Source: Candidatus Adlerbacteria bacterium (lineage in GTDB: Bacteria > Patescibacteriota > Minisyncoccia > Phycocordibacterales > SBAW01). From it: a stretch of DNA of 64,000 nucleotides. Below the pieces are notes generated by a model. That model made no database searches. It had not been told where the DNA came from and was given only the letters and a program-made list of their open reading frames with translations. This document shows, one piece after another, positions 1-53,662 of this stretch. The translations under genes were made by a program, and so were the position numbers. Location: NCBI GenBank assembly GCA_963749085.1, contig CAVVLG010000002.1:19178-83177 (forward strand). Reading direction: 5' to 3'. Every line of letters begins with the position of its first letter. Position 1 is the stretch's first letter.

Positions 1-505
1 GCTCTGCAATGCCTTCGCCCGTTTTACTCGATACCGCGACGTAGGGTACCTCGCCACCCATACCCTCTAAGTACACATTGTGCTCAAGGAGCGAGAGCTT
101 TGTGCGTTCGACGTTTGCCGAGGGCTTGTCTATTTTCGTGAGTGCGACGATATAGGGAATGTCTCTCTCGCCAAGCAACTTCAAGGCTTCCAGAGTTTGT
201 GGCTTGACCCCGTCTTCGGCGGAGACGACCAATACGGCGACGTCAGCGACTTCAAGGCCCCGCATTCGCATTGCTTTGAATGCCTCATGCCCCGGCGTAT
301 CGAGGAACGTTATCGCATGCGTTCCGCCCGCATTCGTGTGTGTCGCTTCATACGCCGAAAGGTGTTGAGTGATGCCGCCGGCCTCGCCCTCGGCCACGTG
401 CGTTTTGCGGATATAGTCGAGCAGGGTCGATTTGCCGTGGTCGATATGTCCCACGACGGCAACGATGGGCGGCCTCCCGGCCCCTATGGATTCCTCTTTG
501 TTCAT
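1..505 (-). CDS. infB: Translation initiation factor IF-2, partial (N-terminal portion; runs off the window start)
   Basis: The minus-strand translation starts at 505 with [35 protein letters not shown]...[19 protein letters not shown]. This is the G1 GHxDHGKT P-loop and the DTPGHEAF G3 motif of the IF-2 G domain. There is no stop before coordinate 1. Confidence 0.8.
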
Positions 506-510
506 AAGCC

Positions 511-1041
511 TTATTTCTTTTTGTGGGATGCAATGGATTCTTTCGCTTTTTGTATGACTTGTCGCTCCTCGTTTGAAAGCTCGAACGTCGAGCGCCCCCC
601 TTCAAGGGGCTTCCCATAGACGCCGACCCGGTCGCGCGCGTAGAGGGTGGAGAGTACCACGCCGCTCCCGTATTCATCAAGAAACGCTGCGGAGAAGCTC
701 TGGTTGCCGCCCTGTCCTTCTCCCGAGAACGGATTGAAGCGCACTATCCCCACACCCTGCACGCTTCCGCGCAGTCGCATCTCCGAGAGCTTAAGATATT
801 TTTCAATTTCGCCGCGAAACTCCCGCATCTCCTTCATCTCGCGCGAAAGGACGTTGAGCGTCTCCTCAAGCGAGCCACTTCTTCCCATAAGCAGGCGATT
901 GAGTCGGCGCTCAAGGACGAATAGTAAGAGAAGAGCCAGAAGGGAGAAAATCAACGCTCCAACGACTAGATAGGGTACGGCACGCGTAAGGTACACGCTC
1001 ATATGGGAAAAGATATCTACTATGGAAGATGAGAGCTGCAT
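511..1041 (-). CDS. DUF4446-like membrane-anchored protein (N-terminal TM helix and a conserved C-terminal domain)
   Basis: ORF with an N-terminal hydrophobic helix followed by ...RFNPFSGEGQGGNQSFSAAFLDEYGSGVVLS..., which resembles the DUF4446 family. It lies immediately upstream of infB on the same strand. Confidence 0.55.
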   Translation of the reverse strand: MQLSSSIVDIFSHMSVYLTRAVPYLVVGALIFSLLALLLLFVLERRLNRLLMGRSGSLEETLNVLSREMKEMREFRGEIEKYLKLSEMRLRGSVQGVGIVRFNPFSGEGQGGNQSFSAAFLDEYGSGVVLSTLYARDRVGVYGKPLEGGRSTFELSNEERQVIQKAKESIASHKKK

Positions 1042-1064
1042 AGGAATGTACTATTATATACCAC

Positions 1065-2234
1065 ATGAGGAGATTGTATGCCGACGCAGCGGCCGCCACG
1101 CCGCTTTCGAGGCGCGCGCGGCAAGAATTGCTGCGGCTGCTTGACCTCTACGGCAACGCCGGGGCGCTGCACTACGAGGGAGTCGAGGCAAAAAAGGAAC
1201 TTGAGACTGCGCGCGCTTCTGTAGCGAGAAGCATCGGTGCTCATGCGGATGAAATAGTATTCACCTCAAGCGGTACCGAAGGCAATAACCTCGCCATCCA
1301 AGGGGTGCTACGGCCACTGCTCCACACATACGGCGGCTTGCACGCGATAACGTGCGCGATTGAGCATCAATCCGTGCTGGAGCCTCTGCGCGCATTGCAG
1401 CGCGAAGGTCTCACGCTGACCGAGATGGAAGTCGACACCGAAGGCCTCGTCTCCCCGAAGGCGCTTGCTGAAGCGATAACCGACAAAACCGTTTTCGTTT
1501 CTATTCAACTGATGAATAGCGAAGTGGGGACGATAGAGCCACTGCATGATATCGCCAGGGGAATACGAAAGAAAAGAATTGGGCGATCATTACCGATTTA
1601 TTTCCATACTGATGCGTCACAGGCACTGCTCTGGGTTGATACAAAGGTAGATACTCTCGGCATTGACCTCATGACGCTTGACGCGCAAAAAGTACTTGGT
1701 CCCAAAGGAGTAGGGTGTCTCTATGTGCGGCGGGGTAGTGACATAGAGCCGGTGTTGTGGGGCGGAGCGCAAGAGCGGGGACTGCGCGGCGGAACGCCCA
1801 ATGTGCCGCTGATTGGTAGTTTTGCACTGGCGCTTGCCGATGCTCAAGCGACCGTACAGAAGAGAGCACAGAAAGTTTCTGAGATTCGGGATATGTGTAT
1901 TAAAGGGGTAATGGAACGCATACCTGATGCAATACTCAACGGTCCCTCGACCGCACACCGAGCTCCTAACAACGTAAATGTATCCATACCCGGGCTTGAA
2001 GCGCAGATGGCGGTTATTGCCCTTGACGCCGAAGGCATCGCCGCCTCGACCAGAAGTGCCTGCAACATCGGGGAAGAAGAACCTTCCCATGTCATTGAGG
2101 CGCTTGGCGTGCCGCGCGAATTAGCCGGCACGGCTATACGTCTTACCTTCCTGCCCGATGTATCAAGGGGTGATGCGAGACGCGTTGCGGAGACACTCGA
2201 AAAAGTTGCGCACCGGTATAGAAATATGGCATAA
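1065..2234 (+). CDS. Cysteine desulfurase (NifS/IscS-type, class V aminotransferase)
   Basis: MRRLYADAAAATPL...IVFTSSGTEGNNLAIQG... and the overall layout are typical of NifS/IscS. Confidence 0.85.
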   Translation: MRRLYADAAAATPLSRRARQELLRLLDLYGNAGALHYEGVEAKKELETARASVARSIGAHADEIVFTSSGTEGNNLAIQGVLRPLLHTYGGLHAITCAIEHQSVLEPLRALQREGLTLTEMEVDTEGLVSPKALAEAITDKTVFVSIQLMNSEVGTIEPLHDIARGIRKKRIGRSLPIYFHTDASQALLWVDTKVDTLGIDLMTLDAQKVLGPKGVGCLYVRRGSDIEPVLWGGAQERGLRGGTPNVPLIGSFALALADAQATVQKRAQKVSEIRDMCIKGVMERIPDAILNGPSTAHRAPNNVNVSIPGLEAQMAVIALDAEGIAASTRSACNIGEEEPSHVIEALGVPRELAGTAIRLTFLPDVSRGDARRVAETLEKVAHRYRNMA

Positions 2235-2245
2235 TAAAGGCACCT

Positions 2246-3049
2246 ATGGATCTGGAGCAGCTGACCAAGCATCAAATAGTCCTCCTGACGCTCTTGGTGA
2301 GCTTTGTCACCTCCATAGCGACTGGCATCGTGACCGTCTCGCTCCTGAGCCAAGCACCCCCGGGTGTTACCCGTACCATAAATCAAATAGTAGAGCGTAC
2401 CGTACAGGAAGTAACGCCGCCAACCCAGGGCGCCACACCCGTCACTACAGTGAAGACGGTCGTCGTCCAAAATGACGATCTAGTCGCGCAATCCATTGCA
2501 ACTATGCAAAAAAGCATCATTTATATCGTCGCAAAAGGAGGCACGGACTTGATTGCGCGCGGCATTATTATCGACAACAAAGGTACCGCGCTTACTGACA
2601 GCGCGGCCGTCATCGATTCGCCAGCGACCAGCTTCGAGGCATTGCTTGAAGACGGCGAGCGCCTGGCGGTCACTATTCCTTCAGGACAATCGACCACGAC
2701 ACCTATTCTCACCATTGATGTTGCAGTGGGTACTTCGACCGGCTTTATTCCGGCGGCGCTCGCCGACCAGAGCCAGCTGGGTCTCGGACAAAGCGTTGTT
2801 CGCATAGGGGGCGTCGGAAACGATGTGGTGGGAGAAGGGGTTATCGCCTCGCTCCCAAATCCTAAAAGCGGCGTCATACAGACTACTGTTTCTTCCGAGA
2901 CACCAGGCTCGATCGTTATGACGCTCTTCGGCGAGGCCATTGGCATCACGACCAGCGACTCTTTGCTAAGTGGTGATGAGTACTATACGCTGCTCCCTCA
3001 GACATCCACAACAACGACGCCTGAAACAAATTCGTCATCCGGTTCGTAA
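2246..3049 (+). CDS. Membrane-anchored protein with a degenerate trypsin/HtrA-like segment (probable pseudo-protease)
   Basis: N-terminal TM helix. The segment ARGIIIDNKGTALTDSAAV resembles the HtrA GSGxIIxxdGyILTNxHVV motif but has D in place of the catalytic His. Thr/Ser-rich tail. Confidence 0.45.
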   Translation: MDLEQLTKHQIVLLTLLVSFVTSIATGIVTVSLLSQAPPGVTRTINQIVERTVQEVTPPTQGATPVTTVKTVVVQNDDLVAQSIATMQKSIIYIVAKGGTDLIARGIIIDNKGTALTDSAAVIDSPATSFEALLEDGERLAVTIPSGQSTTTPILTIDVAVGTSTGFIPAALADQSQLGLGQSVVRIGGVGNDVVGEGVIASLPNPKSGVIQTTVSSETPGSIVMTLFGEAIGITTSDSLLSGDEYYTLLPQTSTTTTPETNSSSGS

Positions 3050-3060
3050 TATAACTATCT

Positions 3061-5751
3061 ATGCCCCCATTCAATCATTTCACCACTAAAGCAAAAGAAG
3101 CCGTGAGGCGTGCGCATGAACTCGCAGTTGAGCGCGGCCAAAACCAGGTAAGCCCGACACACCTTCTCGGGGCACTTTTGCTGCAAGAGGAATCGCTGGT
3201 CACCTCGGTGCTGGAGAAGCTTGAGGTTGATGTCATTTTGCTTACCGATACCGTGCTCGAAGCGCTCGAAGGCACCCCAGGAGGATCGGTTCTTTCTCCA
3301 TCCTACCAGCTGTATTTGACTCCCGAGCTGGTACAGGCGCTTGAGCGCAGCGCCAAAGTGGCGACCGAACTTCACGACGAATTCGTCTCAACCGAACATC
3401 TCTTTATTGCCATCCTCGACGTGCAGGGCGCCGCGCGCGATCTTTTGAGTCGTTTCCGCATCACGCGCGAGGCGATATTGCGAGCACTCGGAGAACTGCG
3501 CTCAACCAAAACAGCCGCAGCTACCGAGTCAAAAAAGTTCCGCGCTCTGCCGAAATACACCCGCTCTCTCACCAAAGCAGCGCTTGAGAATAAGCTCGAT
3601 CCGGTCATTGGCCGCGACGAGGAAATTCAACGCGTCATCCAGATACTCAGCCGCCGCACCAAAAATAATCCTATTCTCATTGGCGAAGCCGGCGTGGGGA
3701 AGACCGCCATAGCAGAGGGACTCGCCTCCCGCATCGCCATGGGCGATGTGCCGGAATCGCTTAAAGATAAAGATCTCGTATCGCTTGATCTCGGCGCCTT
3801 GATAGCCGGTACCAAGTACCGCGGCGAATTCGAGGAACGCCTCAAGGCCATCATGAAGGAGATAGAACGATCCGACGGCAAGATCCTTCTTTTTATCGAC
3901 GAGATTCATACCATGATAGGCGCCGGCGCTGCGGAGGGCGCCATGGACGCAAGCAATATGCTCAAACCGGCTCTGGCGCGCGGCGATCTTCACGTCATAG
4001 GCGCCACGACTCTCAAGGAATATCAAAGGCACATTGAGCGCGACCCGGCGTTCCAACGGCGCTTCCAGCCAGTCTACGTGCTTGAGCCGTCAGTTGAGGA
4101 CGCAGTATCAATTCTGCGCGGTCTCAAAGAGAAATACGAACTGTTCCATGGAGTCCATATCACCGACGACGCTATCGTGTCGGCGGTGCAGTTGAGTGCC
4201 CGTTACATCCCCGACCGATTTTTGCCGGACAAGGCGATAGACCTCATTGACGAAGCCTCTTCTTCTTTGCGCATTTCGCTGGAGAATAAGCCGCCGGTGC
4301 TTGAGGATGCACATCGCAGAATCATGCGTCTTGAAGTCGAGAAGGAAGCTCTCCGCAAAGAGGCACAGGGAGAAGACCGTACCGCTAAGGCGCGCACTAA
4401 GGAGATAGAGCGCGATATAGCAGAGCTTAAGGAAAAAACATCCGAGATTGAGATGCGCTGGAAGAATGAGAAGCAGGTGTTGGGTGATATTAAGTCGATA
4501 AAGAAAGAACTTGAGAGTCTACGGCTCGAGGCCGATTCGGCCGAATCAGCCGTCGATCTGTCCCGCGCGGCTGAAATACGCTACGGAGAAATTCCCTCGC
4601 TTGAACGCGAGTTGGAACAAAAGACCAAGCGACTCAAAAAACTCCAAAGCACCCGCCGCATTCTCAAAGAAGAAATAAACGAGAGTGACATCGCTTCAGT
4701 CGTTTCAAAATGGACGAGTATCCCTGTTTCCCGAATGCTTGAGGAGGAAGCAGAGAAATTGTCCCGCATTGAAGGAGAACTTGAAAAGCGGGTGGTTGGC
4801 CAGCGCGAGGCGGTACAAAAAGTATCCGACGCGGTGAAGCGCAGTCGCGCAGGCATAGCCGATCCCAATCGACCCATTGCCTCCTTTATGTTTCTCGGGC
4901 CAACCGGAGTGGGGAAGACCGAACTCACGCGTGCGCTGGCGGAATTTATGTTTGACGATGAAAAGGCGCTCATACGCGTTGACATGTCGGAATATATGGA
5001 GAAGCACTCCGTCAGCAAAATAATAGGAGCGCCACCTGGCTATGTGGGACACGAAGAGGGCGGGGCATTGACTGAGCTAGTTCGCCACCGCCCGTACGCG
5101 GTGCTTCTCTTCGATGAGATTGAGAAAGCACATCCAGAAGTATTCAACATTCTCCTCCAAGTTCTCGACAATGGATATCTAACCGACGCCAAGGGGCGCA
5201 AGGTAAATTTCCGCAACACGGTTATCATCATGACGAGCAATATCGGCGCGCAATATATCGATAAAATGGAGCAAATAGGATTCTCCGCGCACGGTGGCAC
5301 TGATGCGAGCAACTATATTATGGCTAAAGAGCGTGTGGAACAATCTCTCAAGGACTACTTCAGGCCAGAATTCCTCAACCGTATCGATGAAATAATCATC
5401 TTCAATATTCTCTCGCCCGAGGCCGTCAAAGAAATCGTCGGCATTCAGATCAAAGAAGTGACGGCACGCCTCACGGCAAAAGATATCACACTTACTATCA
5501 TGCCGGCAGTCTATGAGTATCTTTCCAAGGAAGGTTACAATCCACGCTATGGAGCTCGTCCCTTGCGCCGACTGATACAGGATAAAATTCTCACCAAAAT
5601 AGCCAGCCTTATGGTTTCGCGCGGCATACTTCAGGGGGGCAGCGTTATCGTCGATATGCACAAAGGCGAGTTCTCGTTTGATGTTAAAAAAGGAAGGAAA
5701 GGGATGAAAGTCACGCCGAGCGTTGCGGCCGAAGAAAAAGTCGGGGCCTAG
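3061..5751 (+). CDS. clpB: ATP-dependent chaperone ClpB (Clp_N domain, two AAA+ modules, long coiled-coil M domain)
   Basis: Clp N-terminal repeats. Walker A GEAGVGKT and GPTGVGKT. A long coiled-coil middle domain between NBD1 and NBD2. 896 aa. Confidence 0.9.
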
Positions 5752-5795
5752 AAATATCTCTTTAAATAAGGTATTTTGTAGAGGTTCTCCTCTAT

Positions 5796-5882
5796 GCGTC
5801 GGTGGCAGAGTGGTCAATTGCAATTGGCTGTAAACCAATCGCCCTTGCGGCTACGTAGGTTCGAATCCTACCCGGCGCACCA
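5796..5882 (+). tRNA. tRNA-Tyr (anticodon GTA), long variable arm, CCA encoded
   Basis: Acceptor GCGTCGG/CCGGCGC. Anticodon stem ATTGG/CCAAT with loop CTGTAAA. Long variable arm. T-loop TTCGAAT. Ends ACCA. Confidence 0.85.
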
Positions 5883-5926
5883 ATCTTGTTATTTAAGGAA
5901 CAACCCAAAAATTGGGTGTTATTATC

Positions 5927-7780
5927 ATGCATATGAAGAGACTTTGGCGCTTCGCTGCGTTGCCTCTTGTGGTTTTTTATTTGTTTACACCACTATTGGC
6001 GTTGGCACAAACTACTCAAGGCGCTGTCTCTATCGTCCCAGTCGTTGAGCCACAGGGCGGTAATGCCTATAGCGGAACCAATGCACCAGTCGTGGCGATT
6101 GGACTTTCCAATACTGGCTTAAACAACGCTCTGATTAATTCAATTGTCCTTGGAGAACAGGGCTCGGCACCCAAGACCATTTTTACCGGATTTTCAATCG
6201 AAACTGCCTCGGGAACTCTTCTCGGTTCCTCTTCAGGTGGTCTTGGTACTGATAGCACGGTGATGGTTCCTGTGTCTTCGACCATTGTAGCAGGCTCGCA
6301 GGAAATATTTGTCGCGTATGCTTCAATCGCGAATAATGTTTCTCCCGCACTTGGAAGCAGTTTTACGTTTTCGGTGGTCGCGGTCAACTCTTCAGCAACA
6401 GTCGCCGGAGCTCTGCCTGTGAGTGGCGGCCAGTACGTCATAACGAGCGGCACGCCACCGCCCACCTGCATCATGAATGTCAATCCGGGGATCATTTCCG
6501 TCGGTGGGGCAATAACCTTAAGCTGGCAGAGTGCTAACGCAACTGGGGGCACTATTACAAGTGTAGGATCAGTCGGTCCTTCGGGATCTATAAATCTACT
6601 ACCATCTTCAGCGTCTTACACGACCTTTGTCGGCACGTTCACTGGGCCATCCGGAGTTACAGTGTCTTGTCAGGCTACAGTCCAAGTTAACAGCTCGAGC
6701 GGCATTATCACAGGTACCACACCGGCCTCAACGCCCGCACCTGCAACACCAGCCGCCTCCACGCCATCGTCTAGTGGTTCCTTGGTGCCTTGTGGGGCCG
6801 GCAACGGTACGCCCGGGAGCGGTGATGTCATAGGAATAAATCAAACCAACTCGACCGGATGCTCGGCTTGCGACTTGGGGTATCTTGTCGAAAATATTAT
6901 TACTCTTCTCATCGGACTCTCCATACCCATTGCCGCCGGCCTCTTCGCTTGGGCCGGTGTACTGTATTTCACCTCAGGCGCAAATCCGGGAAATATCGAA
7001 AAAGCAAAAAGCATATTTAGAAATGCATTGGTCGGTTTCCTTATCGCGATTACTGCGTGGTTGGTCATCAACACACTTCTGCAGACGCTCCTTGCTGGCA
7101 GTCCCACCATTCCGCAGGGCAGCTGGTTCACGATACAGTGTAATAGGAGTGGACGCGCGGTCAGCGGCACTATACAAACTCTCTTAAATTCATTGCCGAT
7201 TGTGAGCACGACTCAACCTGTGGGCACTTCCTATACCTGTCCAAGCAACTATACGCTTCTTGGAGCTGGGAACACATGTATAGATAATACTAATGGAGAC
7301 ATAATAAACGCAACGCCAATAACAAGTGGGAGTGGAGGGCCTGTTACCCAATGCACAAATTCAAATTGCAGTGTATCAAGCTTGCAATCAAATGGAATGA
7401 GTTCGAATGTAGCGAGCGTCATGTCTTGCATTGCCCAGACCGAAAATCCTAGCGGAAGCTTGTGTAATGGCAACGCATGCGGGACATTCCAGATAATGTT
7501 GTCACTCAATCCACTTAGTGGGTCGGCATGTTCACCATATCCAGTGACTAATTGTACTGGTCCCTCACAGTGTAATGCAGTTGGTAGCACAGCACAAAAT
7601 CTAAACTCGGCCGCGTGTCAGACTTGCCTAGCGAGTGAACAAAAAGCTGCGCTTAACCCTCAATGCAATGCACAATCGGCGAATGCTCTTGTCCAGCAGT
7701 CTGGTTATAGCTCCTGGACTTGCCCCGGTTGTAATTCGAATGCTCAAGCATGTGTAAGCACATACGGCTCCAGTAATTGA
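5927..7780 (+). CDS. Large secreted/membrane protein: signal peptide, Ig-like repeats, a VirB2/TrbC-pilin-like hydrophobic hairpin, and a 17-Cys C-terminal domain
   Basis: Signal peptide MHMKRLWRFAALPLVVFYLFTPLLALAQT. Two hydrophobic helices, IAAGLFAWAGVLYF and FLIAITAWLVINTLL, separated by GANPGNIEKAKS. 17 Cys in the last ~215 aa. The start may be the TTG at 5912 or the ATG at 5927/5933. Confidence 0.6.
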   Translation: MHMKRLWRFAALPLVVFYLFTPLLALAQTTQGAVSIVPVVEPQGGNAYSGTNAPVVAIGLSNTGLNNALINSIVLGEQGSAPKTIFTGFSIETASGTLLGSSSGGLGTDSTVMVPVSSTIVAGSQEIFVAYASIANNVSPALGSSFTFSVVAVNSSATVAGALPVSGGQYVITSGTPPPTCIMNVNPGIISVGGAITLSWQSANATGGTITSVGSVGPSGSINLLPSSASYTTFVGTFTGPSGVTVSCQATVQVNSSSGIITGTTPASTPAPATPAASTPSSSGSLVPCGAGNGTPGSGDVIGINQTNSTGCSACDLGYLVENIITLLIGLSIPIAAGLFAWAGVLYFTSGANPGNIEKAKSIFRNALVGFLIAITAWLVINTLLQTLLAGSPTIPQGSWFTIQCNRSGRAVSGTIQTLLNSLPIVSTTQPVGTSYTCPSNYTLLGAGNTCIDNTNGDIINATPITSGSGGPVTQCTNSNCSVSSLQSNGMSSNVASVMSCIAQTENPSGSLCNGNACGTFQIMLSLNPLSGSACSPYPVTNCTGPSQCNAVGSTAQNLNSAACQTCLASEQKAALNPQCNAQSANALVQQSGYSSWTCPGCNSNAQACVSTYGSSN

Positions 7781-7823
7781 TAAGAGTTTGCGCAAAAAAT
7801 CTATATAGAGTAGAGTCTTTGGT

Positions 7824-7978
7824 ATGTCACAGGATCGACTCATTATCCTTAAACACGCTGCCACGGGCGAGGTGTATTGGACAAGCAAAAATAAGAAAAA
7901 AGTGGAGCGCAAGATAGAGCTCAAGAAATACAGCAAAAAGCTGCGCAAGCACGTTATTTTCAAGGAAGCGAAGAAATA
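7824..7978 (+). CDS. rpmG: 50S ribosomal protein L33
   Basis: A 51-aa ORF absent from the track (under 60 aa): MSQDRLIILKHAATGEVYWTSKNKKKVERKIELKKYSKKLRKHVIFKEAKK. The YxTxKNKRN...LELKKYDPxxRKHVxFKE pattern identifies L33. Confidence 0.8.
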
Positions 7979-7985
7979 AGTCGGC

Positions 7986-8056
7986 GGGCGCTGAGGGAAT
8001 CGAACCCCCGACGGCGGTTTTGGAGACCGCAGTTATACCATTTAACTAAGCGCCCA
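7986..8056 (-). tRNA. tRNA-Trp (anticodon CCA), no encoded CCA
   Basis: The reverse complement gives GGGCGCT...GCGGT-CTCCAAA-ACCGC...GGGGGTTCGATTCCCTC-AGCGCCC-G. This is a complete cloverleaf with anticodon CCA. Confidence 0.8.
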
Positions 8057-8068
8057 ATATGCGCTATC

Positions 8069-9022
8069 TTAGCCCGAAATAAACTTTTTTGCGAGCGAGA
8101 GCGCCTCTTTTTTGTCTTTAATCCAATATATATTTTTATTGTGTTTAAACCATCGATATTGCCGCTTGGCATAGCGGTTTATCTCCCGCTCAAGCTCTAT
8201 CTCAAACTGTGCTTGAGTCAGTTTATGTTGCAATAAAAAAGAAAGAAAACGGTATTCAAGTCCAAGCTCGCGCATACGTTTGTAGGAGAGACTCTCGCGG
8301 TGCAGCTCCTTAGCTTCACTTATCATGCCTGCCTTTATACGTACGCGTAGCCGCCTATGAATATTTCTGCGGAGTTTCTCAGAGGAGGGAGAGAGTCCGA
8401 GCCAGAGGATTTCATATTTCTCCTTGGTTTTTGGAAGGGGATTTTTGCCAATCGCTTTTGCTATTTCAATAGCTCGGATAAGTCGGCGCTTGTGCTCTGG
8501 CTCGATAGTCTTTGCTCGCCGAGGATCTAGTTTTTTGAGTTGTGTGAACAATTGTTTTGCAGAATAACGCTCTAGCCGCTTGCGCAAGGGCATATTCGGC
8601 GGCGCGTTCGGGAGCATAAGTCGTCCTAGCAAGACGTCTACATACAGACCCGTGCCGCCGACGAGAATAGGAAGGTGGCCATTTTGCTGTATGAGCATAA
8701 TTGCTTTTTCTCCCAGCTTTAAAAAGTCATCTGCACTGAATTGTTTCTTAGGGGAAACGACATCAAGCAAGTGGTGAGGAACGCCCTGCATTTCTTTTTT
8801 CGTCACCTTACCGGTACCAATATTAAGCCCTGTGTATACTTGTCTTGAATCGGCCGAAATAATCTCCCCATGCAATTTTTTGGCAAGCCAAATGCCCAAG
8901 GCGCTTTTGCCCGAGCTGGTCGGTCCCACGATACAGAGTATTTTGGTTCTACCCACAAAATGAATGTACAAACTTTTATGTGAAAAAGAAAGCACGGCAG
9001 TCAGCCGTGCTCTTTGCGCCAT
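8069..9022 (-). CDS. miaA: tRNA dimethylallyltransferase MiaA (true start probably internal, near 8960)
   Basis: ILCIVGPTSSGKSALGIWLAKKLHGEIISADSRQVYTGLNIGTGKV...HHLLDV are MiaA P-loop and signature motifs. The ORF start overlaps the neighbouring gene, so a GTG/TTG start near VGRTKIL is likely. Confidence 0.8.
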   Translation of the reverse strand: MAQRARLTAVLSFSHKSLYIHFVGRTKILCIVGPTSSGKSALGIWLAKKLHGEIISADSRQVYTGLNIGTGKVTKKEMQGVPHHLLDVVSPKKQFSADDFLKLGEKAIMLIQQNGHLPILVGGTGLYVDVLLGRLMLPNAPPNMPLRKRLERYSAKQLFTQLKKLDPRRAKTIEPEHKRRLIRAIEIAKAIGKNPLPKTKEKYEILWLGLSPSSEKLRRNIHRRLRVRIKAGMISEAKELHRESLSYKRMRELGLEYRFLSFLLQHKLTQAQFEIELEREINRYAKRQYRWFKHNKNIYWIKDKKEALSLAKKFISG

Positions 9023-9783
9023 GTGATGATGCGCCAGTCCATCTCGTCGTAACGCTCTCGAGGCCAGAGGCCGCAGTGTACATATGCCGCCATCACGTCA
9101 CGCATAATGAATCTAGTGTGCACGTTATCGTAACCGGCTCGCTGGAGAGCCTCAGTACCGCCGAGCTCCCAATCGGCAAAGACAACGTGATGCATCTCGC
9201 GCGTGGGATAGCCCGCGCTCTCCAGATTGCCGAACGCTTCCAGCATCGCTTTGGCGGTTGAGATGATATTCTCGACCGTCATATAGCTATGTCGGAGCAG
9301 GTCGGGTCGATCAATGAGCGTTTGATCCCTGCCATGGTTCTTGGGCGCCGTTTGCATGAAGCTGAAGCACGTCTCTCTATTTACGAGATCCAAGCCGCGA
9401 ACAATGTACTCATTTACCGACAGCTGAGACACGCCTTGGGCGAGTTGATAGCCTGCCGTTGGGATGCCTATGAGACACCGTTGCTTTCCGTGCGTAAGTG
9501 GAAGCGTGTCCACCTTATCCTTAATGGCTGTGCACACTCGAAGCAATAGCAGCGGATTCAGCGCGAGATCGTTGCGCATTCGCACATATACATGGGATTT
9601 GAATCCGGAGTTGAAGGTTATTTCCTCATTGCTCCATGCGATAGTACCGTTCAGTTCCAGATCGTTAAGCAGCGACATGTCGGCGCGACTCAACATTCTT
9701 CCTGACGGTCCGCGAAATGACTTGCCAACGGATTCTTTCATAGCAGACCCCTGTGTTGCGGATGGTTCTACTCCGCGAGACAC
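9001..9783 (-). CDS. Orotate phosphoribosyltransferase-like (type I PRTase fold) protein with a degenerate PRPP-binding motif
   Basis: EITFNSGFKSHVYVRMRNDL parallels the OPRTase EFTLKSGRKSPYFFN..GRDL. LIGIPTAGYQLAQGVS parallels the GIP loop. The PRPP-loop position reads VENIISTAKAM where VDDVITTGGT is expected, so the acidic pair is lost. Confidence 0.4.
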   Translation of the reverse strand: MSRGVEPSATQGSAMKESVGKSFRGPSGRMLSRADMSLLNDLELNGTIAWSNEEITFNSGFKSHVYVRMRNDLALNPLLLLRVCTAIKDKVDTLPLTHGKQRCLIGIPTAGYQLAQGVSQLSVNEYIVRGLDLVNRETCFSFMQTAPKNHGRDQTLIDRPDLLRHSYMTVENIISTAKAMLEAFGNLESAGYPTREMHHVVFADWELGGTEALQRAGYDNVHTRFIMRDVMAAYVHCGLWPRERYDEMDWRIITWRKEHG

Positions 9784-10007
9784 TCTAACAAATTGTTATA
9801 AAAAAGAAAGCGCCCAACAGAAGTTAGACACGTTTTACATGGTAGTTGTCCCGACAGAGGTTGTTACAAAAAAGATTTTCCTGTTTGTCTTTACAATGCT
9901 CTCGACGGCCTGTTAGTTTTTGACCGTACTGGGTGCTGGCAGGTCCCCCAAAATTTTCTCACCAAGTGAACGGGCATTACTAAGCTCGTAATACACTAGA
10001 ACCAGTC

Positions 10008-10448
10008 TCAAAAATAATGTTTGAGTAATAGCATGATGCACGCGAGCTTCACGAAGGCGGCAAAGTTCTGCAGTTTGTATTCGTAGCGAGTCACGAGCTT
10101 TCTCCAGTTGTGCATCCACGCGAACAGCCGCTCAATCTTCCACCGGCGCTTGTAGGAGCGCAGCGCCCTGCCGTCCTGTGTTGCTCTGCGCACCCGGCCT
10201 CTGCGATGCGGTGAAATGAGTTTGATGCGGTATTTGTTCAGGAGCGTTCCATCCAGCGGATCGGAATCATATGCTCGGTCAGCCGTGAGGCGAAGCGGAT
10301 TCTGTCGGGTAAATCGCCGGGCAAGCGTGTCTTCAACCAACCGGACTTCGCTCGGAGAAGCAGAGGCCACATAGACGGCGACTGGAAGAGAGCCTTCGTC
10401 CGCAATCGCCATGATCTTGGTGCCTTTCCCACGCTTCGTGGGTCCCAC
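10008..10448 (-). CDS. IS5-family transposase, C-terminal DDE ORF. It is in a different frame from the upstream ORF, implying programmed ribosomal frameshifting or a pseudogene.
   Basis: ...RAYDSDPLDGTLLNKYRIKLISPHRRGRVRRATQDGRALRSYKRRWKIERLFAWMHNWRKLVTRYE is the DDE_Tnp_1 C-terminal signature. It overlaps the N-terminal ORF by ~210 nt. Its stop codon lies in the terminal inverted repeat. Confidence 0.75.
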   Translation of the reverse strand: MGPTKRGKGTKIMAIADEGSLPVAVYVASASPSEVRLVEDTLARRFTRQNPLRLTADRAYDSDPLDGTLLNKYRIKLISPHRRGRVRRATQDGRALRSYKRRWKIERLFAWMHNWRKLVTRYEYKLQNFAAFVKLACIMLLLKHYF

Positions 10449-10780
10449 GCCAAGACCCCCTTTTTTGCCCCCGCGAAGGTGGCATCGAGAAAGCAGCTCC
10501 TGAGCTTGATGCGCCCCCGGTATTCCATGTCCATGGCCAGGGCTTCGACGATGCGGTCAAAGGCGCCGCTCTCCACCCACTGCTGGAACCTGCGATGGCA
10601 GGTCTGGTAGGGCGGGTAGTCTTTCGGCAGGTGCTTCCACTGGGCGCCGGTCTTCAGTGCCCAGAGGATACCTTCCAGTATCTTGCGGTCGTCCTGCCGG
10701 GGACGGCCGCGGGTTTCCAAACGCTTGAGGGGTGTGACAAACGGAGCGATGACGCTCCACTGCTCGTTGGTGAGAGGCAT
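10238..10780 (-). CDS. IS5-family transposase, N-terminal ORF (HTH / DUF4096-like)
   Basis: MPLTNEQWSVIAPF...ILWALKTGAQWKHLPKDYPPYQTCHRRFQQWVESGAFD is the typical IS427/IS1031-group OrfA. Confidence 0.8.
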   Translation of the reverse strand: MPLTNEQWSVIAPFVTPLKRLETRGRPRQDDRKILEGILWALKTGAQWKHLPKDYPPYQTCHRRFQQWVESGAFDRIVEALAMDMEYRGRIKLRSCFLDATFAGAKKGVLAWDPRSVGKAPRSWRLRTKALFQSPSMWPLLLRAKSGWLKTRLPGDLPDRIRFASRLTEHMIPIRWMERS

Positions 10781-10854
10781 GGGCAGGCAAATTACGGGTA
10801 ACGCCCTGTGCCTTTAGTCTACAACGGTATTTTTGAGATTGGTTCTAGGTTCAT

Positions 10855-11112
10855 ATGAAGAAAGGACATCGTGTCGCTCCTGAGGTAAAGGAGCAGATTT
10901 TAGGTCGCATTAAAAACGAAGGGGTCTCCATTGCAGAGGCAGCCAAGGAGCACGGCATCACCAGCCGGATCATTTACAAATGGCTCGGCATGGGGGCGCA
11001 GGGAGCGCCCACCTACGGGGAGGTCTCCAAACTCCGCAAGGAGAACGCCGAACTCAAACAGCTGGTGGGAGAGATCACTCTCAAGCTCTCTGAGGCCCAA
11101 AAAAAGAAGTGA
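10855..11112 (+). CDS. IS3-family transposase OrfA (HTH)
   Basis: MKKGHRVAPEVKEQILGRIKNEGVSIAEAAKEHGITSRIIYKWL...leucine-zipper-like tail. Ends at the A_AAA_AAG slippery heptamer at ~11100-11106. Confidence 0.8.
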   Translation: MKKGHRVAPEVKEQILGRIKNEGVSIAEAAKEHGITSRIIYKWLGMGAQGAPTYGEVSKLRKENAELKQLVGEITLKLSEAQKKK

Positions 11113-11927
11113 GAGACAACAGTACAGTCAACAAGACCCTGCTCGCCAAAGAGCTTGGCGTCTCGCGCCGGAGCCTCTACTACTATGCAACGAAACCAGC
11201 CAAGGACTGGACGCTCAAGTGCCGCATCGAGGAAGTACTGCGGGAGTTTCCCAGCTACGGGCACAAGCGACTGGCACTCCATCTCAAACTCAACAAGAAG
11301 CGGGTGCGCAGAGTCATGCGGCTTTTTGGCATCAAGCCCTACCGCAGGCGCGGTAGAAAACCCAAGCGGGACAAGACGCTCTCGACTCGTGCATACCCGA
11401 ACCTGCTCATGGTCATGCCGCCGGTCCGTCCACACCACATTTGGGTCGCCGACTTCACCTACCTGCCATTCCATGGACGGTTCGTGTACCTCGCCACGGT
11501 CATGGATGTTTTTGGCAGGGAGATTGTCGGCTGGAGCGTGCTCACGACGCACTCAACGCAGTTAGTACTCGGAGCGCTGTTTTCGGCCCTGCAGCAGCGA
11601 CCGCCTCCAGCGGTCTTCCACAGCGACAACGGTAGAGAGTATGGGTCCAAGGGCTTCATCGAAGCGCTCACCCTCTTGGGTGTTGCGGTATCCCGCTCAA
11701 AGAAAAGTTGTCCATGGGAGAACGGGTATCAAGAAAGTTTCTACTCTCAGTTCAAGGTGGACTTGGGAGATCCGGAGCGCTTTGAAACGCTTGGTGAGCT
11801 GGTGTATGAAATCCATCAGGCGATATGCCACTACAACACGAGGCGCATCCATTCCAGACTCCGGATGCCGCCCGCAGTGTTTGCCGCCGCTCACAGAACT
11901 GCTACACTACAAGCAATCGTTCACTAG
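11109..11927 (+). CDS. IS3-family transposase OrfB (DDE integrase core), reached by a -1 frameshift from OrfA
   Basis: HIWVADFTYLP...HSDNGREYGSKGF...SKKSCPWENGYQESF is the rve integrase DDE motif. It overlaps the orfA end. Confidence 0.8.
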   Translation: MRDNSTVNKTLLAKELGVSRRSLYYYATKPAKDWTLKCRIEEVLREFPSYGHKRLALHLKLNKKRVRRVMRLFGIKPYRRRGRKPKRDKTLSTRAYPNLLMVMPPVRPHHIWVADFTYLPFHGRFVYLATVMDVFGREIVGWSVLTTHSTQLVLGALFSALQQRPPPAVFHSDNGREYGSKGFIEALTLLGVAVSRSKKSCPWENGYQESFYSQFKVDLGDPERFETLGELVYEIHQAICHYNTRRIHSRLRMPPAVFAAAHRTATLQAIVH

Positions 11928-11960
11928 GTGCGCAAAGAAAAGGGTACCTTGCACTCTCTG

Positions 11961-12041
11961 TGCCGGAGGTGGGACTTGAACCCACATCCCTTGCGAGACA
12001 CGATTTTGAGTCGTGCGCGTATACCATTCCGCCACTCCGGC
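11961..12041 (-). tRNA. tRNA-Leu (anticodon CAA), long variable arm, no encoded CCA
   Basis: Reverse complement GCCGGAG...CACGA-CTCAAAA-TCGTG...long variable arm...GTGGGTTCAAGTCCCAC-CTCCGGC-A. The IS3 right end lies 7 bp from its 3' end. Confidence 0.8.
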
Positions 12042-12061
12042 CTCGTGCTAGAATATCTTTT

Positions 12062-13018
12062 ATGTCGCAGTTTTACAATAACGCTATTTTCTGGGTCGAA
12101 GTCGAGAAGATAAAGCCAAATCCTTTTCAGCCTCGCAAGGAGTTCGACGAGGCGAAACTCGCCGACCTCGCCCGCTCCATACGCCAGTACGGCGTCATTC
12201 AGCCGCTCACCGTCACCCGCAAAGAAGTGACGAAGGGGGATGGCGGTCTTGTTGCCGAATATGAGCTTATTTCGGGGGAGCGTCGTCTGCGTGCTGCCAA
12301 AATAGCCGGTGTTCGCGAAGTACCCGTCCTTATCCGCGAGGGCATGGATGATGATAAGACAAAACTGGAATTGGCCATCATCGAGAATCTCCAGCGGGAG
12401 GACCTCAATCCGATAGACCGCGCCAAAGCGTTCGCTCAACTTGTCGATGATTTTGGTTTTAAACACAACCAGATAGCCGAGAAGATAGGCAAAAGCCGAG
12501 AGTACGTAAGCAACAGCATTCGTTTGCTCGCAATGCCCCAGGAAATGCAGGATGCACTTTCGGAAGGCAAAATCTCGGAAGGACATACGAGGCCGCTTCT
12601 CATGCTCACGGATCGTCCCAAAGAGCAGGAAACGTTGTTTCGCGAAATAATGCTTAAGCGCCTCACGGTCCGCGACACCGAAAGCATCGCGCGTCGCATT
12701 GCCACCGACCGCGTGCGTAAGAAAGAGTATCTGTATTCGCCCGAGGTATTGGCGATGGAGAAAGAACTGACTGAATCCTTAGGTACTCGGGTAGCCATTG
12801 AGACCAAAGAGAATGGGGGTAAACTCTCCATTGATTTCATGAGCGAGGATGATCTGCGCACGCTCTTTGCAACCTTGGCGGCCCGTGTCGCGGCCTCTCC
12901 AAAACCTATTGCGTCTGAATCTACTCCCGATATTCCCGTGCAGGAACTCGACGACCGTTCCAAAGACGAAAGAGCGGAGGATGAGAACACCTTCGATCCA
13001 AGCAGTTTTTCCATCTAA
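12062..13018 (+). CDS. parB: Chromosome partitioning protein ParB/Spo0J
   Basis: [51 protein letters not shown]...[14 protein letters not shown]...[23 protein letters not shown] is the ParB box. The start was re-set to the ATG at 12062 because the track ORF runs through the tRNA-Leu. Confidence 0.85.
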
Positions 13019-14577
13019 GCTTTCTTCTCTTTGTCGAGTGCACTGCGAATGTGCCGGCGCGCAAGGGTAGTCTTGGCAAAATCAAGCCACTTGACCTTCG
13101 GGTGAGCAGTTTTTTTGGTCTGAATTTCGACAATGTCGCCGTTGTGGAGCACAGTGTCGAGCTGGACTAATTTATTGTTGACTTTGACGCCGAACACATG
13201 GTCGCCGATATCGGAATGTATGGCGTATGCAAAATCTATGGGACTCGAATTAGTTGGCAAATCGACCACGTCGCCGGTTGGGGTGAATACGAACACCCGC
13301 CAGTTGAATATGTCGGTTTTGAGTGTGGTTTCAAAATCGGGATCCTGAACACCGTCGGTGATATCAGAGAGCCACTCCGGGCCGCCTTTTGCTCCGTAGC
13401 GCGCGCGTTTGCCAATCTCGGTTTGCGAAACTCCTTTCTTGTTTGGTGCTGCCGTGCTGCGCTGGGTAAATCTGGGTATAAGACTTTTTATCCAATCAAA
13501 ACTTGACCCGCGTGCACTACTGCTGTGTGAGGAGGAAATATTGTGCGAACCCCCGTCCTTATATCCGACGTGCGCCGCAATGCCGTACTCCGCTTCCAAA
13601 TGCATCTCCTCAGTGCGGATTTGTATCTCGACAATGCCGCCGTCGCCGGAGAAGACAGTGGTGTGGACGCTTTGATAGCCGTTGGGCTTCGGGAAGGCGA
13701 TGTAGTCCTTTATTTTGTTCGGGAGCGGCTGCCAGAGATTGTTCACGAGCCCCAGCACGCGATAGCAGTCGGAAACGTCTTTGACGATGATGCGCAGCGC
13801 CGCGATGTCGTAGATTTTTTCGATGTCGCCTTCCTTGCGCTGGAGCTTGCGCCAGAGACTGTAGATCCCTTTGATGCGGTAATCAGTTCGAAACTCGGTG
13901 ATGTCATTTTTTGCGAGCTCCTTGCGGAGCGTTTTTTGCATTTTCTCAAGCTGTCGGATAGTCTCTTTCGAACGCTCAGCCAGCAATTTTTTCGTTTTCT
14001 TGTATTCATCCGGCAGCGCATACTCAAAGGCCAGATCCTCAAGCTCCCGGCGCACGACTCCCATGCCGAGCCGGTGGGCTATGGCCGCATATATCTCCAT
14101 CGTCTCAAGCGCGATACGCTCCCGCTTTTGAGCGGGCACGTGCGCAAGGGTGCGCATGTTGTGGAGGCGATCCATGAGCTTGATGATAAGGACGCGCGCG
14201 TCCTTGCCAGTTGCCACCAGCAATTTGCGCAGACTTTCACGGTGGCGTTCGGCCCCACGGTATTTAAGCCGTCCGAGCTTCGTAACCCCCTCCACCAAAA
14301 ATCGCACCTCTTTACCAAACTCCTTTTCCAGTGTTTCCGGCGAGACACCCACGTCCTCGATGCTATCGTGCAAAAGCGCCGCGGCGACCGTGCTGGCGCC
14401 AAGCCCCAATTCCGCTATGCCCTTGGCCGTCTCGACCAAGTGGGTAAGATAGGGCTCGCCGCTGAATCTCGTGTGGTCCTTATGGGCCTCGGCAGCAAAG
14501 GCGTAGGCTTTCTCGACCAGCGCTTTGTCCTCCGGGCTCGGCGCGCTCATTTTCTGGAGTATGTCCTCTGCCCCCAT
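13015..14577 (-). CDS. rel: (p)ppGpp synthetase/hydrolase Rel/SpoT family (HD, RelA_SpoT and TGS domains; short 520-aa form)
   Basis: HD motif region HDSIEDV. Synthetase region ...IKDYIAFPKPNGYQSVHT. TGS-like C-terminus VFTPTGDVVDLP. Confidence 0.85.
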   Translation of the reverse strand: MGAEDILQKMSAPSPEDKALVEKAYAFAAEAHKDHTRFSGEPYLTHLVETAKGIAELGLGASTVAAALLHDSIEDVGVSPETLEKEFGKEVRFLVEGVTKLGRLKYRGAERHRESLRKLLVATGKDARVLIIKLMDRLHNMRTLAHVPAQKRERIALETMEIYAAIAHRLGMGVVRRELEDLAFEYALPDEYKKTKKLLAERSKETIRQLEKMQKTLRKELAKNDITEFRTDYRIKGIYSLWRKLQRKEGDIEKIYDIAALRIIVKDVSDCYRVLGLVNNLWQPLPNKIKDYIAFPKPNGYQSVHTTVFSGDGGIVEIQIRTEEMHLEAEYGIAAHVGYKDGGSHNISSSHSSSARGSSFDWIKSLIPRFTQRSTAAPNKKGVSQTEIGKRARYGAKGGPEWLSDITDGVQDPDFETTLKTDIFNWRVFVFTPTGDVVDLPTNSSPIDFAYAIHSDIGDHVFGVKVNNKLVQLDTVLHNGDIVEIQTKKTAHPKVKWLDFAKTTLARRHIRSALDKEKKA

Positions 14578-14627
14578 ATCAGAAGTCTACTCTTTCTTGA
14601 GGAGAGGAACAAATCTCGCAATAATTG

Positions 14628-28798: not shown

Positions 28799-29235
28799 AG
28801 AAATGGCCAGCGGAAAAGCAGAATGGCAACGGCGACGGTACCGAACCAGCAGAAGGTTGAAATTCCCCCACTAATAAAAAGAGGGAGGCGCTCGCGGAAG
28901 GTAAGCGAGCTGTACGAGCGTTCAACCGCAACGTGCATTAACCACTCGACAAAGAATGAGTTAATAAGCAGAGTCGCGACAGAGAACATTTTCAGCCAAA
29001 AGAGCGGCTGGAAAAGTAAGTAGTCGCGCAGGGGCCAAAACAAATATAGGCCACTTAGAATAAGACCTGAGAGACCCACCGTAACTATCCAATGCAGTCT
29101 AAATACCTTTTTCCGGTGCGTGGCATCTATCCCGCCTTGCATCCACTGCAGTGCCGAATGGTCGGCAAGCAAGATTCCAATACCGGCCAGCGCAAGGAAC
29201 CCTAAATGAATTAAAACAAATATATTAGTAGTCAT
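28795..29235 (-). CDS. Hypothetical polytopic membrane protein
   Basis: Four predicted TM helices. It is in an operon with the cytochrome-b5-like gene. Confidence 0.45.
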   Translation of the reverse strand: MTTNIFVLIHLGFLALAGIGILLADHSALQWMQGGIDATHRKKVFRLHWIVTVGLSGLILSGLYLFWPLRDYLLFQPLFWLKMFSVATLLINSFFVEWLMHVAVERSYSSLTFRERLPLFISGGISTFCWFGTVAVAILLFRWPFL

Positions 29236-29618
29236 TGAGCAAGTGCGCCGATGTAGAAGGTGGCGAGCTCCTGCGCGGGCTGGTTCTGCCCGCCATGTTG
29301 GGCGTTAAATGCCGCGGAGCCGTCTGTGCCGCACAAGGGTAAGATATGCTCGGGACCCCCCGGATGTTGGCCAATCCAATTGGTCACGTCATAGACATTG
29401 CCGTTAATAGCCGTCCAGCAGCTCTGGGCACTGTTGTGCTGTGCCACCTGCACCATCGTATAGCTTTGCACGGTGGAACTTGCAGTCGTTGAAGATGCGG
29501 TAGAAGAAGTAGTCTGAGTGATGCTCTGCGGAGCGGGTGCAGGCAGCGTGAAATACGCGATGGCGAGCACGATGATAAGGACCGCACCCAAGGTGCTTAA
29601 GACAATTTTAGTCTTCAT
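29232..29618 (-). CDS. Cytochrome b5-like heme/steroid-binding domain protein (membrane-anchored, extracytoplasmic)
   Basis: YTMVQVAQHNSAQSCWTAINGNVYDVTNWIGQHPGG...CGTDGSAAFNAQHG is the Cyt-b5 fold signature. Confidence 0.7.
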   Translation of the reverse strand: MKTKIVLSTLGAVLIIVLAIAYFTLPAPAPQSITQTTSSTASSTTASSTVQSYTMVQVAQHNSAQSCWTAINGNVYDVTNWIGQHPGGPEHILPLCGTDGSAAFNAQHGGQNQPAQELATFYIGALAQ

Positions 29619-39784: not shown

Positions 39785-40216
39785 ATGGAAAACAAAGTCT
39801 ATTTGCCCCCCTTTTATCTTATTGCGGCTACTTTTATTGGTCTCGGGGATACGCTCTATCTAGCGTACTATCACCTGCTCGGCATCATCCCGACGTGTGC
39901 GATAGGGGGTTGCGAGACGGTGCTTTCAAGCCCCTATGCTACGCCTTTTGGGGTACCGTTCGCCTACATCGGACTGGTCTATTACCTATATATGCTCGCG
40001 ATTGGCATACTGCTTGTGATGGATCCTCGCTCGTATGGTCTTCGCTTCGGCGCGCTCGCGTATACCACGATAGGACTGCTATGCTCAATAGGCTTTGAGA
40101 TCTTTCAATATTTCGTCATTGGGGCGCTGTGCATGTACTGCGCCATCTCAGCACTCACCACGCTGCTACTTTTCATTCTCGCGCTGTGGCATTGGCGAGC
40201 CACTCGCTCTCGTTAA
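39785..40216 (+). CDS. Vitamin K epoxide reductase (VKOR) family protein
   Basis: Four TM helices with a CAIGGCE loop Cys pair and a CMYC active-site CxxC in the last helix. Confidence 0.7.
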   Translation: MENKVYLPPFYLIAATFIGLGDTLYLAYYHLLGIIPTCAIGGCETVLSSPYATPFGVPFAYIGLVYYLYMLAIGILLVMDPRSYGLRFGALAYTTIGLLCSIGFEIFQYFVIGALCMYCAISALTTLLLFILALWHWRATRSR

Positions 40217-41037: not shown

Positions 41038-41125
41038 GGGGAGTGGAAAAATCTTTTAGTACTCGATCGTTCACGTATGGATAGTTTGTGCCTAGGGGAC
41101 ACGTTTCCCATGCTAGACTTTTTAT

Positions 41126-53488: not shown

Positions 53489-53564
53489 GGGCCCGTAGCT
53501 TAGTTGGTAGAGCGCCTCATTTGCAATGAGGAGGTCAGGAGTTCGAATCTCCTCGGGTCCACCA
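53489..53564 (+). tRNA. tRNA-Ala (anticodon TGC), G3:U70, CCA encoded
   Basis: GGGCCCG...CCTCA-TTTGCAA-TGAGG...AGGAGTTCGAATCTCCT-CGGGTCC-A-CCA. Confidence 0.85.
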
Positions 53565-53576
53565 TAGTTATTTGTA

Positions 53577-53604: not shown

Positions 53605-53662
53605 GTTCATAGACTTGTTATCTCGTCGCGCTTGACAGCGCATAACCTAGAGGAATGAACCT

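Follow-up and report, generated by a model that had tools for sequence, protein, structure and literature searches.

A membrane hairpin of the T4SS_pilin family joined to a predicted lysozyme-like, cysteine-rich head at a conserved locus of Patescibacteria

We analysed a 64,000-nucleotide stretch of the Candidatus Adlerbacteria contig CAVVLG010000002.1, referred to below as the window, and focused on the gene at 5927..7780 on its forward strand, here called the hairpin gene. An earlier note on this DNA had read the product as a signal peptide, immunoglobulin (Ig)-like modules, a linker, a pilin-like hairpin and a Cys-rich C-terminus, and inspection of the sequence, an AlphaFold2 model, Foldseek and Pfam all agree with this layout. 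Our analysis further suggests that the Cys-rich C-terminus is a divergent member of the lysozyme superfamily, and that the hairpin persists in related genomes while the domains on either side of it change. The gene contains the following features.

5927..7780, plus strand: whole gene, encoding 617 amino acids (aa) and a stop codon; the product is 100% identical to the public protein P0001.
5927..6007, plus strand: predicted Sec signal peptide, aa 1-27, with cleavage between ALA and Q, read from the sequence.
6011..6451, plus strand: beta-sandwich module 1, aa 29-175, without Cys; predicted local distance difference test (pLDDT) scores of 85-97 and Ig-like tandem matches in Foldseek.
6452..6700, plus strand: Ig/PKD-like module 2, aa 176-258, with Cys181 and Cys248; pLDDT >90.
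6701..6781, plus strand: Pro/Thr/Ser-rich disordered linker, aa 259-285, from composition and pLDDT <50.
6782..6874, plus strand: LVPCG motif and outer juxtamembrane Cys cluster, aa 286-316, with C289, C312 and C315 invariant.
6866..7093, plus strand: helical hairpin, with helices at aa 314-349 and aa 355-389 and the basic residues K357, K359 and R363 in the loop, from Pfam and AlphaFold2.
7094..7336, plus strand: outer stalk, aa 390-470, made of the WFTIQC405 motif, a linker modelled with low confidence and a small beta-hairpin module (Cys438-Cys451).
7337..7777, plus strand: lysozyme-like, 14-Cys catalytic-type domain, aa 471-617 (the head), from profile matches and hhalign.
7442..7444, plus strand: GAA codon of Glu506, the predicted general acid; this residue closes helix 493-506 on its C-terminal side and precedes the strand motif G519-x-x-Q522 (nt 7481-7492).

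The hairpin matches the Pfam family PF18895 (T4SS_pilin; T4SS stands for type IV secretion system) with 34.4 bits against a gathering cut-off of 26.6 (aa 322-384, nt 6890-7078, profile positions 10-71 of 71). The same model matches 67 of 69 homologues, and NCBIfam adds a weak, sub-threshold match to the Mbov_0395 pilin-like conjugal-transfer family. Hydropathy places the hydrophobic segments at about 317-349 and 362-391. In the AlphaFold2 model, which was built for the full-length protein on an alignment of 69 sequences, they form two long helices with a short connecting loop, and the strings quoted in the earlier note fall inside these helices. With its predicted signal peptide ahead of two transmembrane helices and a short polar loop between these, the protein has the layout of PF18895. 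The two outcomes that the note had named as fatal to its pilin reading were a single buried core in place of a hairpin and the lack of a pilin-profile match; the model and the Pfam search gave the opposite in both cases.

The hairpin is the most conserved part of the family and holds many invariant or near-invariant residues. Its outer flanks hold four conserved Cys: C289, C312 and C315, which are invariant, and C405, which at least 90% of the sequences have. These Cys probably clamp the two outer ends of the hairpin. Because the loop is basic and the Cys lie in segments outside the helices, we infer a topology in which both ends of the hairpin are outside and the loop is in the cytoplasm, as in VirB2-type pilins. 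A holin or a signal-arrest-release (SAR) endolysin was also considered, and was ruled out by the cleavable signal peptide, the large N-terminal ectodomain and the pilin-family match of the hairpin.

For the head, single-sequence searches of Pfam, NCBIfam and the PDB, with either the whole protein or the head, returned no match but the pilin one, and a word-indexed homologue search with the head alone (aa 465-617) returned one protein. Profiles were more informative. Profile A2 is an alignment of 26 C-terminal regions, and profile A3 is a 16-sequence Cys-rich subfamily chosen by sequence motif so that SLT-type heads were left out. Against the PDB, A2 retrieved insect c-type lysozymes (3cb7, E 3.6e-7; 2fbd, 4.4e-6; 2rsc), Slt70 (1qsa, 6.8e-5), MltC and EmtA, and A3 retrieved c-type lysozymes and alpha-lactalbumin only, the best match being 3cb7 with an E-value of 2.6e-4. 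Several A3 members match Pfam models themselves: SLT_3 in 9/16 (best E 2.6e-10), SLT in 8/16, Destabilase in 6/16 and Lys in 2/16. Aligned by hhalign to the SLT-type heads of the orthologues, a set in which 9 of 11 are Pfam SLT, the A3 subfamily gave 80% probability and an E-value of 1.4e-5, centred on the Glu and the G-x-x-Q core.

Glu506, Gly519 and Gln522 are invariant in both A2 and A3, the window protein included. In the alignments, Glu506 falls on the catalytic Glu of the insect c-type lysozymes and on the Glu of the SLT pattern E-S...GLMQ, and G-x-x-Q falls on the GIFQI strand of the former and the GLMQ of the latter. In the model, helix 493-506 ends in Glu506 and is followed by a beta-hairpin of short strands and then by helices (pLDDT 80-93). 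The alignments place the invariant C481, C501, C580 and C609 where hen lysozyme has its C6-C127 and C30-C115 disulfides, and C501 and E506 are as far apart as C30 and E35 of that enzyme. A Foldseek search with the head model gave three lysozymes as the only PDB matches, none of them significant, and noise in BFVD. Judged by these profile comparisons, the 17-Cys domain is a divergent lysozyme-superfamily domain with its putative catalytic Glu retained. The earlier note had proposed a disulfide-rich surface domain; the abundance of Cys stands, but a mere surface domain it does not appear to be. A lysozyme-like head would shift the functional reading of the protein from an adhesin or pilin to an enzyme that cleaves the cell wall.

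A second catalytic carboxylate was looked for at the position of Asp52 in hen lysozyme, two residues before the conserved Gly, and is missing: the window head has Ala517 there, and the 16-sequence subfamily has A, P, S or H. For this reason a single-acid mechanism like that of lytic transglycosylases would be more likely than the classical c-type one. The window head also has a lineage-specific Cys-rich insertion at aa 525-570. Between the hairpin and the head, W400 and C405 of the stalk are invariant or nearly so, the strands at 442-461 are modelled with pLDDT 86-94, and modules of the Cys438-Cys451 type occur in multiple copies in several homologues.

To place the protein among its relatives, we searched 1.84 billion cluster representatives exhaustively, which gave 6397, 1123 and 132 proteins at E-value limits of 1e-3, 1e-10 and 1e-30, respectively. 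All named matches are from Patescibacteria (Paceibacterota, Adler-, Kaiser- and Nomurabacteria, Parcubacteria). The best relative in GTDB is 45% identical, and NCBI names for the relatives are just ‘pilin’ or ‘lytic transglycosylase domain-containing protein’. Of the 69 homologues, 14 match SLT in Pfam, 14 match CHAP, 6 match Destabilase, and SLT_3 and Transglycosylas are matched by 4 each; the C-terminal part of 40 of them contains an E...GxxQ motif.

The hairpin gene occupies a conserved slot. In 48 related genomes of the Paceibacteria type the order is aminotransferase, 267-aa membrane protein, ClpB, the hairpin gene, (L33), MiaA, ParB, RelA/SpoT and TopA. By tblastn, the hairpin is kept in all 48 syntenic loci with a median identity of 48%, as compared with 84% for ClpB and 34% for the lysozyme-like heads; the Ig module is found in 20 loci, the lysozyme-like head in 14 and N-terminal module 1 in 3. 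The hairpin is therefore the conserved core of the protein and the outer domains are exchangeable additions. We define as close the 33 loci whose ClpB is at least 80% identical; they hold 37 proteins at the slot, the gene being present as a tandem pair in 5 of the 33. According to hidden Markov models (HMMs), 22 of these proteins carry lysozyme-like heads and 5 carry CHAP-type heads, 2 more have a Pfam SLT domain, and the rest are of unknown type. At 11 more distant loci, five slot proteins are bare pilin-like proteins of 157-195 aa with no outer domains. Heads of different bond specificity would share one substrate, which points to peptidoglycan as their target. At orthologous loci an extra gene of 176-194 aa lies between the hairpin gene and rpmG (L002:11980-12507, L003:11893-12456, L005:11541-12122). 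Its product carries an anchor at the N-terminus and a conserved GFSFCPGA motif at the C-terminus. This product matches nothing in Pfam or the PDB, the window encodes no homologue of it, and it may act as the enzyme's partner or inhibitor.

The protein contains 22 Cys. Exactly 17 of them fall in the final 215 residues, as the earlier note had counted, the first at 405 and the last at 609. The C-terminal Cys share is 7.8%, and the background, taken from 27 other window proteins, is 0.48% (binomial P ~1e-15). The note had also described repeated xC(N/T/S) contexts. Eight of the 17 Cys precede N, T or S, with about 6.4 expected at 38% S+N+T, so this pattern is no more than chance and is explained by composition. 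The VKOR reported for the window is present.

39785..40216, plus strand: VKOR homologue, candidate oxidant (PF07884, E 7e-23), 32 kb from the hairpin gene and not linked to it.

Since the number of Cys is even, all of them are outside in the proposed topology and the window encodes a VKOR, we infer 11 disulfides in the protein. Two exported proteins are encoded beside the VKOR gene. The first (40216-41037, minus strand) has 274 aa, a Big_3_5/CARDB Ig-like domain and a C-terminus that is hydrophobic; the second (41126-42049, plus strand) belongs to the CAP/cysteine-rich secretory family, and its C-terminal region is likewise hydrophobic. The three together (39785-42049) form a small cluster of disulfide-related surface genes.

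The N-terminal half is more variable. The N-terminus, MHMKRLWRFAALPLVVFYLFTPLLALA followed by Q after the predicted cleavage site, is by eye a typical Sec signal, with a basic n-region, a hydrophobic core seen in the hydropathy profile and an A-x-A site, and the model places a helix at 7-19. The reading frame is open over 5912..7780 on the plus strand and offers TTG 5912 and ATG 5933 as alternatives to ATG 5927; because the orthologues begin with MKRLW, ATG 5933 may be the true start. Two beta-sandwich domains follow at aa 33-255 (pLDDT >90), for which Foldseek with the full-length model found only generic tandem Ig-like domains, e.g. nectin, RAGE and transglutaminase barrels. Module 1 has no Pfam match and occurs in few orthologues, being detected by HMM in 2 of the 33 close loci (L002 and L003, with duplicates L004 and L008). 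Module 2 was found by HMM in 18 of the 37 close orthologues, and 3 of the 69 homologues match PKD. It is a repeat specific to the candidate phyla radiation (CPR), covered by no Pfam model, with up to 16 copies in giant proteins of 1675-2580 aa (P0086, P0163). At 617 aa the window protein is itself not giant, as the earlier note had called it. The region from aa 259 to 313, which leads to the hairpin, is rich in Pro, Thr, Ser and Gly and is predicted to be disordered.

The immediate neighbours of the hairpin gene are as follows.

5796..5882, plus strand: gene for tRNA-Tyr, directly upstream of the hairpin gene.
7824..7979, plus strand: rpmG (ribosomal protein L33), directly downstream, part of the conserved ClpB-X-L33-MiaA slot, where X is the hairpin gene.

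A tRNA-Trp gene and miaA also lie downstream, beyond rpmG, and the GC content of the hairpin gene is similar to that of the surrounding DNA. The earlier note had suggested looking for neighbouring T4SS or type IV pilus components. Among about 40 open reading frames of the window scanned with Pfam, we found none, virB4, virB6 and virB3/prgI included; these frames are housekeeping or transport genes. A hairpin HMM found no second hairpin gene in the six-frame translation of the window. T4SS or type IV pilus genes are likewise absent from the 20-kb syntenic loci of the relatives, whose neighbours are housekeeping genes only. An origin as a mobile element or phage lysin was ruled out by the synteny conserved in 48 genomes and the native composition of the gene. 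Between miaA and parB, at 10238-10780 on the minus strand, lies a DUF4096 domain, the N-terminal fragment of an IS4/IS5-family transposase, which is probably the remnant of an insertion sequence. The 267-aa membrane protein of the conserved order (2246-3049, plus strand) always lies between the aminotransferase and ClpB genes, a position as conserved as that of the hairpin gene; its one match is a weak one to Trypsin_2, in a single relative. ParB, RelA/SpoT and TopA are encoded within window positions 1-16838, and the cumulative GC skew has its minimum within the first 16 kb, so that the hairpin gene may be close to the replication origin. According to the published T4SS survey, secretion genes of Paceibacteria tend to lie near the replication origin.

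Arrays of three or four small PF18895-type pilins occur in several relatives (L069:9917-12282, L071:9869-12625, L076:7124-9290, L083:5844-8971), downstream of gyrA and a solute-binding-protein gene. Their large neighbours are a tRNA synthetase, GyrA and the solute-binding protein, and no VirB4 was found among these. Each array opens with a gene that has the LVPCG...C motif in common with the window hairpin and is 35-43% identical to it, and in L082 (9872-12493) and L083 this first pilin is fused to fn3, He_PIG or Big_9 domains.

Elsewhere in the window, a cytochrome b5-like haem/steroid-binding domain protein with an N-terminal membrane anchor is encoded at 29235-29618 on the minus strand, which is unexpected for such a genome. 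Four tRNA genes (Ala, Val, Pro, Ala) are clustered at 53489-55278 among short open reading frames without a family match.

We compared the protein with the known systems that it resembles. With the VirB2-like pilins of Patescibacteria it shares a PF18895 match above the cut-off, the signal peptide and two-helix hairpin with a basic loop, the LVPCG...C of the first array gene, and the phylum. Those pilins, however, are small (about 100-170 aa in the arrays here), lie in arrays and are often near virB4, whereas the window protein has 617 aa, is encoded singly in a housekeeping slot far from T4SS genes, and carries Ig-like modules and an enzyme-type head. The VirB1-type hydrolases pIP501 TraG, pCF10 PrgK and ICEBs1 CwlT likewise tether a lysozyme-clan domain (CHAP in some orthologues of the window protein) outside a monoderm membrane, and the same alternative chemistries, glycosidase and CHAP peptidase, recur across the family. 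They carry SLT and/or CHAP domains on a single N-terminal transmembrane anchor and are encoded within a T4SS operon; none of them is known to sit on a pilin-family hairpin. The window protein differs further in having one catalytic head, not two or three, and in being far more Cys-rich. Animal c-type (GH22) and i-type (Destabilase) lysozymes give the best PDB profile matches (3cb7, 2fbd, 2rsc) and have in common with the head a Cys five residues before the catalytic Glu, the G-x-F-Q-I strand, the aligned N- and C-terminal Cys and many disulfides, but the window domain is bacterial, membrane-tethered, without the second-carboxylate Asp and extended by the Cys-rich insertion; the E-values are modest and the Foldseek matches non-significant. 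The family-1 lytic transglycosylases (SLT, PF01464; Slt70, MltC, EmtA) and SLT_3 (PF18896) have the same arrangement, in which a helix ends in the catalytic Glu and a G-x-x-Q strand comes next. The window protein matches neither model, and in it G-Y-x-x-W replaces A-Y-N-x-G and Asn replaces the Ser after the Glu.

VirB2-like pilins occur widely in Patescibacteria and are essential (PMC12102498, PMC12857230), as in Southlakia epibionticum, and have been surveyed with PF18895 (Wang et al. 2023, PMC10633639; Quinonero-Coronel et al. 2025, PMC12102498; PMC12857230). The T4SS and these pilins are essential in the only genetically tractable patescibacterium, and their role has been called completely unknown (PMC11665869). 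In one survey, matches to PF18895 were counted as VirB2, with no lengths or extra domains listed, and most genomes with VirB2 had no recognisable VirB1 (PMC12102498). Some of the most highly expressed unknown proteins of Paceibacteria carry a T4SS-pilin domain (PMC10936435), and how a monoderm could build such a pilus is a question raised in a review (PMC12857230). Our full-text literature search found no description of a fusion of a pilin hairpin with a wall hydrolase, or of the ClpB slot. Every part of the protein belongs to a known family or superfamily, and it is the combination, the conserved locus and the c-type-lysozyme-like Cys-rich head that appear to be undescribed.

We propose the following model for the action of the protein. 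After Sec export and removal of the signal peptide, the two Ig-like modules and the flexible Pro/Thr/Ser linker would lie outside the cell. The chain would then cross the membrane twice through the T4SS_pilin-family hairpin, with the basic K-A-K..R loop in the cytoplasm, and re-emerge as a short Cys-clamped stalk bearing a compact lysozyme-superfamily domain with about seven disulfides. This head would cleave the glycan strands of peptidoglycan, with Glu506 at the helix end as the general acid; the single-acid, lytic-transglycosylase-like mechanism is favoured, and muramidase activity is also possible. VirB1-like wall-cutting chemistry would in this way be joined to a VirB2-like membrane module. 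The pilin-type hairpin would position the producer-tethered enzyme beside the pilin/T4SS assembly machinery, most likely in cis, and the producer's own wall would be opened locally, with the Ig-like modules reaching outward. We hold with moderate confidence that the protein is a membrane-tethered peptidoglycan glycosidase on a VirB2-like pilin module that acts in cis near this machinery.

Several observations weigh against this model. Neither the window nor the 20-kb syntenic loci yielded a T4SS or type IV pilus gene, and the link to a T4SS for this reason rests on the family name and the similarity to the small array pilins. The earlier note had read the hairpin as VirB2/TrbC-like, and the broader pilin assignment holds through PF18895, but PF04956 (TrbC/VirB2) does not match the window protein in Pfam and reaches only below-threshold matches in 2 of 69 homologues and 4 of 10 orthologues (E 0.0015-0.006). 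A hairpin profile of 89 sequences found no solved pilin in the PDB, and hhalign of the hairpin with A. tumefaciens VirB2, whose sequence was verified against PDB 8cue, gave an alignment that is topologically sensible but not significant (E 0.011, 3.8% probability). The window head alone matches no Pfam model even at E<=1, SLT and SLT_3 included, and it reads E-N in place of the usual E-S found in the majority of relatives. A weapon directed against a host would also be consistent with heads that turn over fast and with the tandem duplicates.

One possible alternative, which we consider rather unlikely, is that the protein is a decorated pilus subunit that acts on the host. The hairpin would be pulled out of the membrane and assembled, by itself or together with small PF18895 pilins, into a filament of the T4SS type; since both termini of VirB2-type pilins face the filament exterior, the filament or its tip would be studded with the Ig-like and lysozyme-like domains, which would bind the host and breach its wall. 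The similarity of the hairpin to the LVPCG first genes of the small-pilin arrays, some of which are themselves fused to adhesin-type domains (fn3, He_PIG or Big_9), speaks for this, as do the bare pilin-like proteins of distant loci, which imply that the hairpin works on its own, and the long disordered linkers that AlphaFold2 predicts on either side of it. Moreover, the heads and N-terminal modules evolve much faster than the hairpin or the neighbouring genes, as is typical of host-interaction genes, and both a T4SS pilus in Patescibacteria (PMC12857230) and an attack on hosts by lytic transglycosylases (PMC11665869) have been put forward as speculation in reviews. However, a pilus of such a kind has never been seen, T4SS genes were not found nearby, and about 290 aa and 230 aa at the two ends would crowd a VirB2-type helical lattice if present on every subunit. 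Methanogenic archaea, furthermore, have no murein. Some cultured Paceibacteria parasitise these archaea (PMC10936435), and a lysozyme would have no host target there. The turnover of the heads favours the decorated pilus over an opener acting in cis; the bulk of the appended domains and the archaeal hosts favour the cis opener.

An ordinary housekeeping autolysin, in which the hairpin would be a mere two-pass anchor and the cell would remodel its own wall in growth and division, is similarly doubtful. Membrane-tethered wall hydrolases are common in monoderms, the gene is present in single copy in a conserved housekeeping neighbourhood (ClpB, rpmG, MiaA, ParB, RelA, TopA) in 48 relatives, its GC content is like that of its surroundings, and no secretion genes lie nearby. 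Yet an anchor alone should conserve hydrophobicity and not sequence, and the hairpin is the best-conserved part, with many invariant residues; it matches a curated pilin family and persists without the enzyme in distant relatives, and housekeeping autolysins seldom exchange catalytic heads among close relatives. That the head is a catalytically dead, disulfide-rich surface or adhesin domain on a pilin-like anchor, using a lysozyme-like fold only to bind glycans, is possible but improbable: its escape from all Pfam models, the E-N, the Cys-rich insertion and the presence of alpha-lactalbumin, a non-enzymatic lysozyme homologue, among the PDB matches are consistent with it, but the Glu and G-x-x-Q invariant in 26 and 16 sequences argue for retained catalysis, and bona fide SLT and CHAP enzymes stand at orthologous slots. 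We therefore rank a wall opener acting in cis first, followed by a decorated pilus subunit, a plain autolysin and a non-catalytic binding domain.

It is also tempting to consider, although we regard it as speculative and on balance unlikely, that PF18895 hairpins are a general display module of Patescibacteria. The LVPCG-type first pilin would be a tip or adaptor with exchangeable heads (lysozyme-like, CHAP, or fn3/Ig adhesins) on a T4SS-built filament, and the protein studied here an enzyme-armed pilin that drills the producer's own wall or that of the host at the point of contact. If this were true, an enzyme-armed pilin would explain how the pili do without a separate VirB1.

Together, our results make a widespread, vertically inherited hairpin with exchangeable, predicted wall-cutting heads a candidate for the missing wall-opening activity of Patescibacteria, and the same protein may also serve as a tool against the host wall. 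‘VirB2’ counts based on PF18895 include large multidomain proteins of this kind, which are predicted enzymes. The head adds to the lysozyme superfamily what appears to be a very Cys-rich, c-type-lysozyme-like bacterial branch.

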